A stretch of 63,432 nucleotides of DNA, taken from positions 1 to 63,432 of the IMG/VR virus record IMGVR_UViG_3300025000_000097. The stretch is one strand, 5' to 3'. Numbering within the stretch: the stretch's first letter is position 1; every line of letters begins with the position of its first letter. The notes below the pieces were generated by a model. It did not search any database, was not told the DNA's origin, and worked only from the letters and a program-made list of their open reading frames with translations. Below are positions 1-5,704 of this stretch, in pieces. The DNA comes from a virus. Taxonomy: Duplodnaviria > Caudoviricetes. The translations under genes were made by a program, and so were the position numbers.

Positions 1-104
1 TCTTACAGGTTCCATCCGCATTCTTCATCGGCTTGCCCTGGGGGTCCAGCAGCACCCCGGCTGGCGGCTTATCTCCACCGAGTGCGCCTTCTGGATTGCC
101 TATG
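1..104. repeat. terminal direct repeat, left copy (circular-assembly overlap)
   Basis: 1-104 matches 63329-63432 with one mismatch at position 5; 6-104 is an exact 99-nt overlap. Confidence 0.95.
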
Positions 105-1528
105 TCGCCCAGGCTTGGGCCTTCCTCATCGATCAGCGCCTGATCTGCCTCAATATCATACTCCTCACTGAGCACGCCCCGCCGTACGAGCTCCGTGCAG
201 TAGGCAGTGCGGCTTATGTCCTTACGTGCCCGCCCTTTATCCAGAGCATCGAGGTCAGGCTGATTGCCCATGTTGCTGGTCAGGTCACACTCAAACATGA
301 TGCTACCAGAATCGACGTCAGGAGTGCCCAGCCAGGCCAGGGTGAACTTGATTGCCTGCTCCAAGGCATCGCTCAGGTCCTCGCCCATAGATTCCAGGAT
401 GGCTGCGCTCTGCGATGTATCGATGGCCTTCGCGGTCGCTGTCACATTCCCTGTCTTGGGCATGATCGGCTCCAATGCGCATATCTTCATCTGATTCTCG
501 AGGTCCTCGAGGTCCTGATGGCCTGCTTCGATCGCCTTGCCTGTGTGCTCGACGAAAGTGAGCTTCGACTGCGGGTCGCTGTTGGTCACCATGGTGTTCG
601 GGCCTACAGCCAGCTTGTTGTTGCTGCCGTCAGACTCGAATCCGGCGCCGAAGAGGATCGGTACGCGGGCAACGTGCAGGATGTTCCGCTGATCGCTGCT
701 CGACTGCCAGTGTGCCAGGTTGAGCTCGGCCAGCTTGGCCAGGGGTGGCTCACCGGTCATGAACCCCGTCCGCTTGGTGTAGACCGGGACTAGCGGGATG
801 AAGTCCAGGGTGGTCACCCCGCTCTTCACGATAGCCCAGTCGCCAGCATCGTTTACGCGCCAGGTCTCCCATCTCCCGGGATAGAGTACCTTGACCTGAT
901 CTATATTGGTAGTGCCCCAATCGCCGTTTTGTTCCTCAACGTGCTCCATGATCTGCAACCTGGCCAGACGTTCCTGCCCGTTGATTACCTCTGTCCGCCA
1001 GTTGATGACATTCTCCTGCTTGACATGCACCCAGAACGGACGCACGCCAGCAGCCTTCTCATCGGCCTTGCTCATAACAGGAGGTTCTGCGCCTTCCTCG
1101 GCAGCAGGATCAGCCTGCAAGGCCATGCCTGCATAGTCTACCAGCAGGTAGTCGACCCCGGGCTGAAGAGCACTTTCAAAGAGGTCACGCACGAAGCGTC
1201 GCAGGTCACGCCCTGTCAGATCGATATCTGCAAATAACGCCTCCACCTCGCCGGGTATCTTCTCCAGCTTGATGCCGTTACGGAACAGGCGCCCTACCAT
1301 CTCCTCTATGGTCATGCCATACTTGTTGAAGAGAAAGGTCCGCGCTAGGCGGTTCTTGTAGAGGTCGTCAGTTTCCTTCGGCTCCTGGGGGAGGAACTCC
1401 TTCCCGGCAGCCCGCATCCCATATGTTCCGGCCATCAGTGTTCTCGGAAGCTGTGCTGCTATCATCATCGCGTTGTGTGCAGCATTAGGCGTGCTCACAT
1501 TTGGCTTGTCTTCGGTCTTCTTGCTCAT
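1..1528 (-). CDS. portal protein (DUF4055-like), 5' part; continues across the origin to 63270
   Basis: Absent from the ORF track because it wraps. ATG at 1528 after AGGAG; MSKKTEDKPNVSTPNAAH...AGKEFLPQEPKETDDLYKNRLARTFLFN; lies between TerL and MuF; 528 aa when joined. Confidence 0.85.
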   Translation of the reverse strand, partial: MSKKTEDKPNVSTPNAAHNAMMIAAQLPRTLMAGTYGMRAAGKEFLPQEPKETDDLYKNRLARTFLFNKYGMTIEEMVGRLFRNGIKLEKIPGEVEALFADIDLTGRDLRRFVRDLFESALQPGVDYLLVDYAGMALQADPAAEEGAEPPVMSKADEKAAGVRPFWVHVKQENVINWRTEVINGQERLARLQIMEHVEEQNGDWGTTNIDQVKVLYPGRWETWRVNDAGDWAIVKSGVTTLDFIPLVPVYTKRTGFMTGEPPLAKLAELNLAHWQSSSDQRNILHVARVPILFGAGFESDGSNNKLAVGPNTMVTNSDPQSKLTFVEHTGKAIEAGHQDLEDLENQMKICALEPIMPKTGNVTATAKAIDTSQSAAILESMGEDLSDALEQAIKFTLAWLGTPDVDSGSIMFECDLTSNMGNQPDLDALDKGRARKDISRTAYCTELVRRGVLSEEYDIEADQALIDEEGPSLGDIGNPEGALGGDKPPAGVLLDPQGKPMKNADGTCK

Positions 1529-1543
1529 GAGGTCATCTCCTTG

Positions 1544-1747
1544 TTAGCAGGTATATCCATATGTGGAGCTCAGTAGGTAGTTATCAAGTGGCTGCTCGGG
1601 CTCGGTATCGTAGCAGCCCTCCTTCAGGGCCCTGATGCACATCCCGCAGTGCTGCTGGCTCCAACCGTGTTCTGTGCAGGTGGCATCCATTAGCTGCTGT
1701 GCATCGAGGTTGGCCCCTTCGTGCAGGGCGTGCATCATGGGTATCAT
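1544..1747 (-). CDS. hypothetical protein
   Basis: ATGA overlap with the TerL stop codon. Confidence 0.5.
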   Translation of the reverse strand: MIPMMHALHEGANLDAQQLMDATCTEHGWSQQHCGMCIRALKEGCYDTEPEQPLDNYLLSSTYGYTC

Positions 1748-4275
1748 ATGTTGAGCTCGCTTGAGCCTGATTCTGCAGTCCGCTTGTAGATTCTGTACCG
1801 AGTCTCGTCGCCGCAGTTGTGGACTAATAACCCATTTGACAATGTAAAGGCGTGATAGTTAGGAACATTTAGGCAGTATACATCGGCATTAGTATCCGGC
1901 AACACATGCACCACGTCTAAGTTTCCAACGCAGCTTTGCTCCACAGCTTCTACTACAGGTCTTAGTGAAAAGATACTTGTTAACAGTAAATGGAGCGCTG
2001 CAAATGATACAGACACGATCTTCATTGTCTGTTCCAGCGGCACCGCGTGCTGCCGTTTTACAGGCATTGGAGCAGTATTTAAACTGTGCCCAATTAGTAG
2101 CCTTAACTGTTTTAATGGCGCCACAATGCATGCAAGCCATCTGTTTTTCAGGCATAAGTTGCCCGTTGCGTTTACCTTGCTCACTGTGCCAGGCCAATCC
2201 TTCAGGCGACCCGTGCCATGTGGCAGCAGCCATTCGGGCCGTATCTGAGAGTTTGTTATTTGTTCTGCTACCCGTGTGTAATGAGGCATGCTCACTATTT
2301 GTGCATAAGTTAAGGTTTGAAGACTGGTTATTGCTCTTATTTTCATCATCGTGATGCACTGTAAAACCTTCTGGAATTGGCCCATGATGATACGTATAAA
2401 CCACCCTGTGTAATCGGATACCATCATGCTGAAAGTAAGGCCCGCAAAGGTAGTACTTAATACCAGCGAACTCTTGGATTGTAGCGCTGATTTGAAATGG
2501 CTCCACAATAACCTCCTAATAGAAACGTTATAAATATTATAACATGTTTCATTAGATAAGTAAAGCGCTTCTTTCCATCCATCTTTCGTCATGAAGAGGT
2601 GATCTGGGGTACAGCGCACATGGGATCCGTCTGAAAGAGTAACCGTTACGGTCTCTGCTTGTTGCTTTACTAGTTGACAGTTATCATACGGCGCCCAGAT
2701 ACCACCGGCAGTAAGCACGCAGCCTGTTGTGCCCACCAATTCTAGCAGGGTCTTAACGCCAGCAGCAGTAAGTATGGTGGTATCCCCTGTGAAGCAATGG
2801 TCCTCGCACTTGGTGTCCACATCATCTGGCTTATCGGTATCACGAGGCATCATGGGGACGGTCCTGATCCACCCGCGACACGTGTTGAACACGAACAGCC
2901 CTGGTTCTTCCATCGGAGTGGTCCGATAGATAGGGTTCATGTGCTCATCCTTATCCAGTGCGCTGCTCAGGAGGTTCCTCAGCAGTTCCCACCCGGCACG
3001 CCGTGATCCAGGGCTCTTGTTGGCAGGCAACCAGGTCACGCCTTCCTTCTTCATCTCTGCAGCGATGCTCTTACCATCGAGCACGTCGAATATCGATGAG
3101 TCAGCCGGCCCTGGTTTCGGCTTCGTCTTGATGAACCCACCTTGGAGCATAGCAGTCTCACGCTCAACGATCCCCTTGGCGATATCCTTGGTCAGCATCT
3201 CCAGACCGACGTTGGGCTGATCCTCCTTGCAGCCGTACCATTCATTGATACGGAACAAGGTGCCCTTAGGCCAGGACTTAAACTGCGGACTGACTCGCCC
3301 GGTCATCGGATTCTGTGTGTTGCCGCAGTGGATGAGCGTCCCATCCGATTCTGCCCACCAACCGATGCTGAAGGGCTTGCTGCTGCCATAGTCGAAGGAT
3401 CGATCGATGCGCCAGGAGTGCGGAATGTTGAAGGGCTCGATCTCGTGCACAGCCTGATTGTACCACGCGCCGAGGATCGAGCCTGCCGTGATGTTCCAAT
3501 CCCCCTCTAGCCAGGCTTTCCGCTTATTCTCATCCTTGATCCCCATCAGCTTCGCGATGTACAGTGGATCGTTGTCGACCAGCTTCCTATTCTCTCGCCA
3601 GTCGCCGTGGATGTAGCAGCGACGCATATAAATCTTCTCGCCTGTGAGCGGATGGATGAAGGTCTCGATTACAGGCTTCTTCGCTGGGCCCTGATCGATG
3701 AACCGAGCCTTCACCCAGTGATGACCGATGCCGAAGGGGTTGCACGTGCCACCGTAGAAGCGAGGCATGGGCAGGATTCCAGGGGGCGCTTCATATGAGG
3801 ACCTGTTACAGGACTTCATGCTGTCGTAACAGCCGCTGTCTGCCCAGTTGGTAAGCTCCTCCCAGCCGATGAACGGATACTCATGACCGTGGTAGTTCCA
3901 ATAATCGATCGCGTTGTCCATGTAGCGGAAGAGGAGTGTCTCACCCCCAGGGAACTCCCACTGATGCTCGCTCTTGTTGTACCGTGCGAAAGGGAATATC
4001 TGCTTGAACCACTTCTGGCTCTTTGCAATGACGTCAGACAGCTGCTTGTAGGTCTTGCGAAAGATGATCCCTCTCCAGGCCTCTCCGTAGCCCTCGCCCA
4101 CGTGCTGTGCGAACTTCATCAGGAGAGCATCGGTCTTCCCGGGGCCTCGCGTGCCCGCGTACAGTACCTCTTCATAGGGGCACGTGAGAAATGAGACCTG
4201 GGAGCCTGGTTGGGGCTCCCAGATGATGATCGGGTCTGGTACGTGGATAAGTTGTTTGTCCTGGGGGGCTTCCAC
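1744..4275 (-). CDS. terL: terminase large subunit containing an intein
   Basis: Walker A GTRGPGKT, Walker B IGWEELT, GTCNP motif, nuclease motifs DYGSSKPF and EDH|CGDETRY (split by the intein). Confidence 0.95.
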   Translation of the reverse strand: MEAPQDKQLIHVPDPIIIWEPQPGSQVSFLTCPYEEVLYAGTRGPGKTDALLMKFAQHVGEGYGEAWRGIIFRKTYKQLSDVIAKSQKWFKQIFPFARYNKSEHQWEFPGGETLLFRYMDNAIDYWNYHGHEYPFIGWEELTNWADSGCYDSMKSCNRSSYEAPPGILPMPRFYGGTCNPFGIGHHWVKARFIDQGPAKKPVIETFIHPLTGEKIYMRRCYIHGDWRENRKLVDNDPLYIAKLMGIKDENKRKAWLEGDWNITAGSILGAWYNQAVHEIEPFNIPHSWRIDRSFDYGSSKPFSIGWWAESDGTLIHCGNTQNPMTGRVSPQFKSWPKGTLFRINEWYGCKEDQPNVGLEMLTKDIAKGIVERETAMLQGGFIKTKPKPGPADSSIFDVLDGKSIAAEMKKEGVTWLPANKSPGSRRAGWELLRNLLSSALDKDEHMNPIYRTTPMEEPGLFVFNTCRGWIRTVPMMPRDTDKPDDVDTKCEDHCFTGDTTILTAAGVKTLLELVGTTGCVLTAGGIWAPYDNCQLVKQQAETVTVTLSDGSHVRCTPDHLFMTKDGWKEALYLSNETCYNIYNVSIRRLLWSHFKSALQSKSSLVLSTTFAGLTFSMMVSDYTGWFIRIIMGQFQKVLQCITMMKIRAITSLQTLTYAQIVSMPHYTRVAEQITNSQIRPEWLLPHGTGRLKDWPGTVSKVNATGNLCLKNRWLACIVAPLKQLRLLIGHSLNTAPMPVKRQHAVPLEQTMKIVSVSFAALHLLLTSIFSLRPVVEAVEQSCVGNLDVVHVLPDTNADVYCLNVPNYHAFTLSNGLLVHNCGDETRYRIYKRTAESGSSELNI
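1889..2506 (-). CDS. HNH homing endonuclease with CxxC zinc fingers, nested out of frame in the intein
   Basis: RLHRVVY...GPIPEGFTVHHDDENKSNNQSSNL...EHASLH; CMHC, YCSNAC, CIIC, TCSRSC; GTG start after AGGAGGT. Confidence 0.9.
   Translation of the reverse strand: MEPFQISATIQEFAGIKYYLCGPYFQHDGIRLHRVVYTYHHGPIPEGFTVHHDDENKSNNQSSNLNLCTNSEHASLHTGSRTNNKLSDTARMAAATWHGSPEGLAWHSEQGKRNGQLMPEKQMACMHCGAIKTVKATNWAQFKYCSNACKTAARGAAGTDNEDRVCIICSAPFTVNKYLFTKTCSRSCGAKLRWKLRRGACVAGY
2511..2564 (-). promoter_or_regulatory. sigma70-type promoter and RBS for the nested HNH gene
   Basis: TTTACT-17nt-TATAAT with extended -10 TG; inverted repeat GTTATAA-ATA-TTATAAC over the -10; SD at 2511-2517. Confidence 0.75.
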
Positions 4276-4509
4276 TTACTTCTTGCTCCGCGGCTTGAAC
4301 AGTGAACCGCCAGCTGATTTATAACCCTCACGGAATGTGGTTTTACCTGCTGTGAAGTCGCGTATATTCTTAGATGCCACTCTACCTTGTAGCCTACCTA
4401 AGGACTTTGCCTCATTGCTGGCGGTGGACTTCCCGAAGCGCACCTTAGCAGTTGAGCTCCCACCTTTGCCTGCTGCGAACCATCCCTTGCTGTCGTGATT
4501 CTTGTTCAT
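4276..4509 (-). CDS. small basic hypothetical protein
   Basis: GGAGGAG RBS; coupled between TerS and TerL. Confidence 0.7.
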   Translation of the reverse strand: MNKNHDSKGWFAAGKGGSSTAKVRFGKSTASNEAKSLGRLQGRVASKNIRDFTAGKTTFREGYKSAGGSLFKPRSKK

Positions 4510-5201
4510 GGCTCCTCCTCCAGGTCTACTGTGTCGATAAGATTCTCTTGTGCTGCTCCAGCCTCAGTTATGCCCTCTTCCTCTTCCCACTGCTGGATGC
4601 TCGGCCGGTTCGGAACGCGAAGGACGCCTCCGATCTGTTTGCTCGGGTCGTCTACCTTGTCCCGGAACATAGCCATAGTCTTGCCTAGCAGTTCGAGCGC
4701 CTTCAGCTGATCGTGAGTCTTAACCTCTAACTTCGTGCCTCCACCTTTGATCTTTGTCTCTGTAACAGAGTGAATGCCCGCAGACTCGTGAGGCAGTAGC
4801 TGATTGAGGTCTCTCAATGTTACCTTATTCTTCTCCCACGTCATGATCTCAGCAACGTCGGCAAAGGCGATCGCTGCTATTGCATTGAGTACCTTGTCTG
4901 GGCTCACTTTGCAGCGGTCGGCCCGAGCATCCATGCCAGCCTGGATCGCCTCGAGTATCTCTGGCTTCTGCATAAGCTGGTGGGCTGTGCTTGACGCAGT
5001 GTGCTCGGAATAACCCGCAAAGATTGCTGCTCGCTTCTGGCCACCATGTAGATGCCCCCAACGCAGCATACCGTTAACGAATCCTCGCCGCATAACAACA
5101 GAGCCCAGCTCTTTGTCGAGGGTCTCGCGAGCAGTTCTGGCACGCTTCTCTTTGTTGGTCTCGGGCTGCTCAGGTGCTGAATTTATTGTTTGGTCGCTCA
5201 T
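4506..5201 (-). CDS. terS: terminase small subunit
   Basis: AAIFAGYSEHTASSTAHQLMQKPEI HTH and HDQLKALELLGK motif; upstream of TerL; likely start MSDQ. Confidence 0.9.
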   Translation of the reverse strand: MSDQTINSAPEQPETNKEKRARTARETLDKELGSVVMRRGFVNGMLRWGHLHGGQKRAAIFAGYSEHTASSTAHQLMQKPEILEAIQAGMDARADRCKVSPDKVLNAIAAIAFADVAEIMTWEKNKVTLRDLNQLLPHESAGIHSVTETKIKGGGTKLEVKTHDQLKALELLGKTMAMFRDKVDDPSKQIGGVLRVPNRPSIQQWEEEEGITEAGAAQENLIDTVDLEEEP

Positions 5202-5443
5202 ATGGTTTATTTTAGCATGATCGCACGCCAATGTAAGCGACTATTATTGATAGACTAAAAGTAATTCTTCTTGACCTCTTCCCTGGGGTTCCGCTCCTCT
5301 CTTTCCTTAAGTGCTCAAATGCGCAATGACTATTACCGACTATCGTTGATAAAGGACTGATTTAGTCTTAATAGCTCATATACGTAAGGAAATATTTTTC
5401 ACTACTTCAAAAACTTTTCGGAATTCCAATTCACTCGGGACTT

Positions 5444-5600
5444 GACCCCAGGGTAAAGCGACGCATAAAATACATTGCTTCCTCCACAATATTTAGGATA
5501 AGTCACTGATTTCATTACACTAAATACGCAAAATACGATAATACACACTTTTCTAAAAAAAATGTATTTAATACACTCTATAAAAATTCTTCCTATATAT
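5444..5600. repeat. AT-rich intergenic imperfect direct repeat, copy 1 (copy 2 at about 34261-34408)
   Basis: Shared blocks ACCCCAGG, AATATTTA.GATAAGTCA, TAAATACGCAAAATAC.ATAATA..CACTTT, CCTATATAT. Confidence 0.7.
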
Positions 5601-5704
5601 ACAACCGAGCTTTTAAATATGAACAATTACAAAAATAGGTATTTACAAGTGTAATGTCACACGCTATTATAAATAGACATTAACTATACTTTCGGAGGTA
5701 AATC

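Follow-up and report, generated by a model that had tools for sequence, protein, structure and literature searches.

The large terminase subunit (TerL) gene of a 63,432-base virus record from IMG/VR (IMGVR_UViG_3300025000_000097, CheckV completeness 92%; hereafter the window) carries a class-1 intein, and the DNA of the intein's middle part also encodes, in a second frame, a complete HNH nuclease. We think it probable, with good confidence, that this is a dual-coding TerL intein with a separately made homing HNH nuclease whose control resembles that known from phage T4. In the TerL frame, a stop-free and probably unfolded linker of ~200 codons would allow the precursor to be made and spliced. 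The -1 frame would supply an intact I-HmuI-like HNH/zinc-ribbon nuclease, translated separately from the GTG at 2506 behind the Shine-Dalgarno (SD) motif AGGAGGT. Homing is the most likely role of this nuclease: by cutting TerL alleles that lack the intein it would trigger repair, in the course of which the complete cassette would be copied across. The source is probably an uncultured, Yuavirus-like groundwater phage, the host of which is probably proteobacterial.

Searched against Pfam, the TerL open reading frame (ORF) matches Terminase_6N (E=1.2e-4) and Intein_splicing (E=3e-9; 37.2 bits at a cutoff of 35.8), the latter match being broken in two by an insert. With the TerL of Pseudomonas phage PAE1 (Yuavirus) the protein shares 50% identity in an alignment that ends exactly at ...EDH, after which PAE1 reads IADCIRY, whereas the window reads CGDETRY only after 327 additional residues. 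The intein site is the conserved motif EDH/CxDExRY (the slash marks the junction) in the C-terminal region of TerL, and the GC content of the insert is 0.40–0.48, compared to ~0.57 in the flanks. An N-terminal Cys, TxxH, a penultimate His, a terminal Asn, a +1 Cys and the HINT fold are all present, as expected of a class-1 intein. In an alignment of 49 inteins C1 and N327 are invariant, and T63, H66 (both in TPDH), V306, Y307 and G322 nearly so. AlphaFold2 models the two lobes of the intein with pLDDT (predicted local distance difference test) values of 89–98, and these lobes match the mini-inteins Ssp DnaB, NrdJ-1 and gp41-1 with a probability of 1.0; the middle is modelled at ~45 (40–58, with two blocks at 68–71). 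We infer that the precursor is spliced. A fractured gene with a split intein was rejected, the host gene being one undivided ORF of 843 amino acids. An endonuclease-bearing group I or group II intron was rejected as well: TerL reads through as an open frame, and an Rfam search of 1500–3100 returned only a 16-bit small RNA chance match.

The loop between intein splicing lobes normally holds an in-frame endonuclease. In the window, the endonuclease ORF is nested in the -1 frame of this loop and matches Pfam HNH_3 with E=7e-16 (58 bits, cutoff 24.8). Its product begins with an I-HmuI-like HNH_3 domain, followed by two Cys4 zinc ribbons whose CxxC...C...C groups are conserved across 70 homologues. 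In the alignment of these 70 sequences H51, H52, N60 and H73 are invariant and H77 is nearly invariant; the window protein lacks none of the 13 invariant and 20 nearly invariant residues. The AlphaFold2 model of the HNH frame has a mean pLDDT of 93.7, and the closest solved relative is I-HmuI (sequence E=0.0013, fold probability 0.90). A TAG in the HNH frame (2518..2516) lies 4 codons ahead of the GTG, and the N-terminus that follows, MEPFQIS, aligns with annotated free-standing proteins (MDPIYIS or MDPIIIS). The gene's own TAA falls ~24 codons before the end of the intein, the first ~13 codons of the C-terminal splicing lobe overlapping the 3' end of the HNH gene. An initial annotation had described intact TerL intein splicing blocks and a complete 205-residue HNH/zinc-finger ORF at 1889–2506 in another frame, and had proposed profile searches of both frames. 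Both descriptions stand: C1, TPDH and HN/C are in place, the profiles find Intein_splicing in the TerL frame and HNH_3 in the nested frame, and the nested product carries the Cys4 groups.

Could two overlapping frames stay open by chance? When the HNH gene is permuted synonymously, the intein frame stays free of stops in 2.6% of cases, and in 0.13% when the order of the codons is shuffled; synonymous permutation of the intein frame leaves the HNH frame equally open in 0.075% of cases. As had been noted initially, both frames are open for more than 600 nucleotides, and the third frame has 26 stops. At the single locus the evidence against chance is moderate; it is the relatives that decide.

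We searched 50,697 phage records by tblastn with the HNH protein, which gave 24 records. In IMG/VR, a single HNH protein as query returned 4 weak loci and an alignment query 528 relatives, the best 80 of which were kept. Together with the window and 8 phage records these make up a set of 89 full-length HNH copies (L009 and L010, below 140 bits, were dropped), in which near-duplicates occur, for example L014/L015, L046/L047 and L086-L088. Fifty-nine copies are nested in the relative frame seen in the window, that is, in a long host ORF whose frame lies one base after the HNH frame; the other frame holds a single nested copy (L085), and the remaining 29 are free-standing. Among 56 host ORFs (the window and 55 from IMG/VR), Intein_splicing is found in 51, Terminase_6N in 26 and Terminase_3 in 21. 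Distinct IMG/VR inteins have C1 and a terminal Asn in 51/52 cases, with a Gln end in 1, and all are followed by a +1 C or S. Phage copies lie inside annotated TerL genes at an offset of +2, with the TerL frame open, in Tetrasphaera phage TJE1, Acinetobacter phage Highwayman, Clostridium phage phiCDHM19 and Rhodobacteraceae phage LS06-2018-MD07. The inteins of these four phages run from C to HN/C, or to SN followed by C or S, and TerL is the sole annotation over the HNH match. HNH matches in the phages phi CD119, Brochothrix BL3 and Vibrio 1.238/1.245 are also found under TerL or Hint annotations. In GTDB, a scan with a single protein found no relative and a query with a 6-sequence alignment found 51 loci. 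Full-length copies occur at 17 of these: 7 are free-standing and 10 are nested, 9 of them in the usual frame and 1 in the other. Contigs that carry nested GTDB copies are those of Allohahella, Prevotellaceae, Sodaliphilus, Acidobacteria, Burkholderiales, Piscinibacter and Dehalococcoidales. The TerL genes that harbour the cassette belong to two Pfam families, and at least four bacterial phyla appear among the organism titles. Two identical-scoring nested copies (L176 and L177) lie ~52 kb apart on the chromosome of Allohahella sp. A8, each in a host ORF of only 565 amino acids; they may represent two prophages or a duplicated region.

Among the 59 copies with the usual nesting, none has a stop in the host-type frame. 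The 29 free copies average 6.45 stops in that frame (range 1–14, never 0), and the third frame of HNH homologues averages 17–21. Substitutions at the first, second and third HNH codon positions amount to 0.27/0.185/0.546 in nested copies (7 pairs at ≥70% amino-acid identity) and to 0.273/0.209/0.518 in free-standing copies (4 such pairs), and the same third-position pattern is seen at lower identity (26 and 27 pairs; 1,658 and 373 pairs). The third HNH codon position is the second host codon position, and the intein frame has no substitution excess at a third codon position of its own. Because substitutions concentrate at the third HNH codon position, the comparison indicates that the HNH protein is under purifying selection, the host frame being selected only for openness. 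The initial view of the in-frame interior as nothing but a stop-free linker holds up in this respect too, with 0 stops in 59/59 nested copies, no third-position excess of its own and a pLDDT of ~40–58.

The window is a single metagenome-derived record and may derive from the very runs in which it is found, which leaves room for the suspicion that two compensating indels conceal a canonical intein with an in-frame HNH domain. Logan contigs of 4 runs (2 samples, 1 study) span 1500–3100 with 0 differences and 0 gaps; as these runs are possibly the source of the window DNA, they do not count as independent. The same relative frame is, in contrast, repeated in 59 loci from independent records, 4 isolated phages included, and the HNH frame is closed by its stop ahead of the start and by its own TAA well within the intein. 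Given that relatives repeat the relative frame, that the host frame is stop-free in all nested copies and that the contigs are gap-free, the artefact is excluded, and we put the chance of it at practically nil. The endonuclease is, as initially proposed, a separate out-of-frame gene: a -1 ORF, with a TAG-bounded start in the window, in a relative frame that recurs in 59 loci.

Why do nested copies lie almost without exception in the -1 frame? The bias, 59 of 60 nested loci, would suit a programmed -1 ribosomal frameshift that joins the nuclease to the N-extein and N-terminal splicing lobe in one fusion protein. We consider such a fusion extremely improbable, because the TAG four codons ahead of the window GTG leaves no room for a slippery site and because annotated free-standing proteins align with the HNH N-termini. 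In most nested loci, moreover, no more than 15 codons separate the last upstream stop from the start, SD motifs are enriched ahead of nested starts, and stop density accounts for the frame bias. Comparison of the homologues indicates that -1 is the frame that can be cleared of stops with the fewest changes to an HNH gene of this kind, since few have to be removed there (6.45 as opposed to 17–21 in the other frame). Two nested copies have the HNH gene +1 to the host: L085:3206-4081 in IMG/VR and L181 in GTDB, the latter in a metagenome-assembled genome of Candidatus Microsaccharimonas. L085 has 0 stops in the frame where its relatives average 17–21, and G, K, R, Q and E abound in its host-frame linker. 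The +1 arrangement is either an independent solution or an indel-shifted derivative.

A nuclease read separately from its host protein likely has start signals of its own, to judge from the sequence ahead of the HNH gene (Table 1). The promoter-like site of the window matches the consensus at 10/12 positions, its -10 element ends 29 nucleotides before the GTG, and it is the best of 6 matches in 1500–4600, where shuffles give 2.5 +/- 1.4. Across the family, an SD-like motif precedes 30 of 54 distinct nested starts (22 5-mers, 8 4-mers), compared to 12.7% of 5,868 control triplets. A promoter-like site lies within 110 nucleotides upstream in 21/52 nested loci, against a background per 110 nucleotides of 0.054 in host ORFs and 0.08 in HNH ORFs. 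The distance from the -10 element to the start is 19–39 nucleotides in 13 of these loci, 6–9 in 6, and 54 or 72 in 2; phage phiCDHM19 has a perfect TTGACA-17-TATAAT. Folding of the RNA from 2575 to 2495 gives -16.7 kcal/mol (z = -2.54), which 1/200 shuffles matched. In a structure test over the family, the window scores a z of -2.28, with 76% of its SD-to-start positions paired upstream. The region from -90 to +12 has a mean z of -1.01 in 52 loci and of -0.07 in 151 control windows (Mann-Whitney p=1.3e-6), and pairing of the SD motif and start with upstream bases is 0.54 as opposed to 0.34 in controls (p=2e-5).

Several points weigh on the other side. No SD-like motif precedes 22 of the 54 distinct nested starts, and for 2 more no start codon was found. 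No promoter-like site is present in 31/52 nested loci, and those found are consensus matches in AT-rich DNA. The loci in the structure test are related, so that the p-values overstate their independence, and the 80 IMG/VR loci were chosen as the best-scoring of 528, not at random. Because TerL is translated through the hairpin, elongating ribosomes would melt it. Public runs that hold window DNA are all labelled groundwater metagenome, with no RNA run among them.

The initial annotation had listed the SD motif, the GTG, the promoter and an inverted repeat over the -10 element, and had considered auto-repression possible. The first two and the promoter-like site are as described, the promoter being known as a motif alone. 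The repeat exists but is imperfect, with a 2-nucleotide bulge; the RNA fold recovered it and the repeat search did not list it. Auto-repression finds no support: the promoter region, compared with each homing-site flank for operator mimicry, shows no similarity (365–487 of 500 shuffles score as high), and an RNA hairpin that covers the start signals is the better interpretation of the repeat. Concealment of the ribosome binding site by such a hairpin, as in I-TevI, fits better than auto-repression. We infer that the nuclease is transcribed and translated on its own, and that the hairpin has a regulatory role. The internal promoter (2564-2536) would yield a short transcript that lacks the 5' arm of the hairpin and leaves the ribosome binding site free, and in read-through TerL mRNA the hairpin (2566-2500) would pair the start region with upstream sequence. 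By analogy, expression probably follows the scheme of T4 homing endonucleases.

In loci L036, L050, L052, L069, L076 and L085, a -10-like hexamer ends 6–9 nucleotides before the HNH ATG or GTG, which would make the mRNA leaderless. The motif GATAnnnnGATAtAAT, which recurs there, also provides the codons of the conserved intein motif R-Y-x-D-I, with which the N-terminal splicing lobe ends. As the sequences read, one stretch of DNA may serve as both protein motif and promoter.

Is the nuclease a homing enzyme, or does it serve DNA packaging? A scan of IMG/VR with the TerL N-extein as a single protein found no relative; an alignment query gave the 80 closest relatives (47–56% identity). In 79 of these the motif EDH/xxDExRY is uninterrupted and no HNH homologue lies within 2.5 kb; one, L156, reads EDHCGDETRY, the exact empty site. 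By blastn, 172 phage records match the window TerL, and only 24 hold HNH. The only intein-bearing allele among the 80 is L106:2501-4777, with the intein six residues upstream of the window site, junctions DDVD/C...VTN/TDAEDHCGDECRY with a +1 Thr, and a nested HNH gene in the -1 frame. A terminase-associated HNH packaging factor was reportedly described by Kala and colleagues in 2014, and the window HNH protein might be a cofactor of this kind. Homologues, nested or free, do lie within or beside terminase or portal genes, and the idea is raised in the available text of a paper on Brucella phages (PMC4422536). An essential factor would, however, not be so patchy, and the best solved relative of the nuclease is a homing nickase, I-HmuI. 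Such patchiness speaks for a selfish element and against a cofactor essential to packaging, a role that we regard as very unlikely.

Free-standing homologues are found beside terminase genes in PAE1, SN1, BP10 and PhiSTP1. In PAE1 (L006, 2265-2882) and Sphaerotilus phage SN1 (L005, 3001-3618), an HNH gene with a 47–48% identical product starts 55 nucleotides after the TerL stop, ~120 nucleotides from the position of the window's intein site. A nuclease parked beside its probable target recalls, by analogy, intronless homing.

A homing enzyme may also have lost its function. The window HNH ORF could be a recently silenced relic, the intein persisting by splicing only with nothing to mobilise it now. 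Activity is not readable from sequence, and in nested L057 and L072 the profile match runs past the HNH-frame stop, so that the C-terminus is apparently truncated, which may be decay. Such decay is expected in the available text of a 2025 preprint by Gosselin, Arsenault and Gogarten. The window gene, on the other hand, keeps every invariant and nearly invariant residue listed above and has an intact start, SD motif and promoter-like site, and the third-position excess in the HNH frame across the family is typical of purifying selection. We therefore judge a relic unlikely, and a homing nuclease made from its own start remains the reading that we prefer.

Did the cassette assemble in the window phage? 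On a quick LG+G4 tree of 89 HNH rows the nested or free-standing label changes at least 6 times, starred branches forcing 2 of the changes; with shuffled labels 24 are required. The family has switched between the two states at least 2 and up to 6 times. The window HNH groups with nested L016, L025 and L014/L015 (Shimodaira-Hasegawa-like approximate likelihood ratio support, SH-aLRT, 89), and the nearest neighbours of its splicing lobes are L032, L017, L014 and L016. Because the HNH gene and the splicing lobes have overlapping nearest neighbours, intein and HNH gene probably arrived as a unit and were not put together in the window phage. The earlier proposal that a free-standing HNH gene had invaded a mini-intein thus finds no support as a local event. 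A wider reading, which we offer only tentatively, is that of an old, widespread and co-evolving dual-coding cassette. It would combine a conserved module of promoter and ribosome-binding-site hairpin in intein codons (some members being leaderless) with repeated exchange of nucleases with free genes beside the terminase, and its -1 frame would stem from stop density and not from a single origin.

Table 1. Features of the TerL locus in the window (positions numbered from its first base).
Feature	Positions	Strand	Remarks
TerL precursor gene	1744..4275	minus	single open frame through the intein, 843 amino acids; Terminase_6N and Intein_splicing
N-extein	2797..4275	minus	TerL residues 1-493, ending ...DTKCEDH
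Class-1 intein	1816..2796	minus	TerL residues 494-820, 327 amino acids; C1 (CFTGD), block B TPDH, LLVHN/C
N-terminal splicing lobe	2512..2796	minus	intein residues ~1-95; pLDDT 89-98; blocks A and B conserved in intein alignment
Intein-frame linker	1930..2511	minus	intein residues ~96-289; stop-free, no protein-level conservation, predicted unfolded; DNA common to the HNH gene
C-terminal splicing lobe	1816..1929	minus	intein residues ~290-327, ...GLLVHN; pLDDT 94-98
C-extein	1744..1815	minus	CGDETRYRIYKRTAESGSSELNI plus stop
HNH endonuclease gene	1889..2506	minus	205 amino acids, offset +2 (= -1) to TerL; GTG start, TAA stop 1891..1889
SD motif AGGAGGT	2517..2511	minus	five bases ahead of the GTG at 2506
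Sigma-70-like promoter motif	2536..2564	minus	TTTACT (2564..2559)-17-TATAAT (2541..2536), extended -10 TG; sequence match alone
Predicted RNA hairpin	2500..2566	minus	-35 region pairs with GUG; inner arms reach the SD edge; -10 in 5' arm
Portal-like gene	2..1528	minus	downstream of the TerL ORF

Around the TerL gene, a 67-amino-acid Cys-rich ORF (1544-1747, minus strand) lies between TerL and the portal-like gene, its ATG overlapping the TerL stop codon. A 241-amino-acid ORF at 4506-5231, just upstream of TerL, is the last of the minus-strand packaging genes. These genes are separated from plus-strand ORFs, which start at ~5705, by an AT-rich gap at 5232-5700 (GC 0.26–0.40) that is probably a divergent promoter region.

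What follows from a nuclease hidden in this way? Gene callers give only the long TerL ORF, and a whole family of active-looking nucleases would be missing from protein databases, because in Highwayman, phiCDHM19, TJE1 and LS06-2018-MD07 the match carries no annotation other than TerL. To intein biology the family offers many natural replicates that tolerate a linker of ~200 residues selected only to lack stops, and it supports the view that inteins acquire endonucleases from free-standing genes. It is also a clean case of overlapping genes, with selection acting on protein sequence in one frame and on nothing but openness in the other, and it holds a possible promoter-plus-hairpin control inside coding DNA that is testable in cultured family members.

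The initial annotation suspected that related non-canonical inteins might already have been reported, and rightly so: to judge by the available texts, such inteins have been in print since 2015 and the class was described in 2025. The 2025 preprint (Gosselin, Arsenault and Gogarten) describes, in its available text, actinophage inteins, many of them in TerL, that carry an 'endonuclease VII-like' nuclease 'in frame 3' on the same strand between the splicing blocks. There the in-frame middle is unstructured, an origin from free-standing endonucleases is proposed, and only an N-terminal core of ~67 nuclease residues matches a solved His-Me nuclease. The window shares this layout as given there: same strand, other frame, between splicing blocks, host frame open. 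Its nuclease scores as Pfam HNH_3, with no Endonuclease_7 match at E<=1, and its phage, unlike those actinophages, is Yuavirus-like with a probably proteobacterial host. A tblastn search with the actinophage TJE1 copy gave no SEA-PHAGES actinophage among the 60 matches listed of 455. The terms 'promoter' and 'start codon' were not found in the available preprint text. Our literature search did not find the HNH_3/zinc-ribbon family as such, its promoters or its hairpins, the supplements of the preprint being outside the comparison.

An intein-encoded HNH out of frame within TerL is described, as far as the available text goes, for Brucella phages Tb and Pr (Virol J 2015, PMC4422536), and record NC_019446 annotates this TerL as 'intein present' with a nested HNH coding sequence. 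That HNH gene is a +1-frame member of PF01844, its motif is close to the C-terminus, and the intein around it sits in the N-terminal half of TerL. Only 37 columns align with the window family profile (probability 71%), and on these sequence grounds the Brucella phage case is an independent instance. In the fractured genes of Dassa et al. 2009 (PMC2677866), again by the text available, a free-standing endonuclease gene lies between two intein splicing halves; there the host gene consists of two ORFs that splice in trans, whereas in the window the host frame is open and the intein contiguous. The ShiLan type (Arsenault et al. 2025, PMC11855218) is, in its available text, an out-of-frame HNH gene with a GTG start in a stop-free phage DNA methylase ORF, without splicing domain or detectable ribosome binding site; the window, in contrast, has a complete intein and a strong SD motif.

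I-HmuI (PDB 1u3e), the intron-encoded HNH nicking endonuclease of Bacillus phage SPO1, matches the fold of the window nuclease over 164 columns at 20% identity, with a low global template modelling score (0.28). The C-terminal DNA-binding part of the window protein, two Cys4 zinc ribbons, is unlike that of I-HmuI. For the start signals, the available text of Edgell, Gibb and Belfort 2010 (PMC2988022) provides the precedent. There, T4 I-TevI, I-TevII, I-TevIII and segB and Aeh1 mobE are embedded in a host transcription unit and have promoters of their own immediately upstream; on longer transcripts the ribosome binding site is masked by an RNA hairpin. Those genes lie, by that text, in introns or between genes, whereas the window gene lies inside translated intein codons and its arrangement is predicted. 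The architecture is thus not new, and the window adds a member to a published design; the family-wide start signals and the explanation of the frame by stop density are the parts that may be new.

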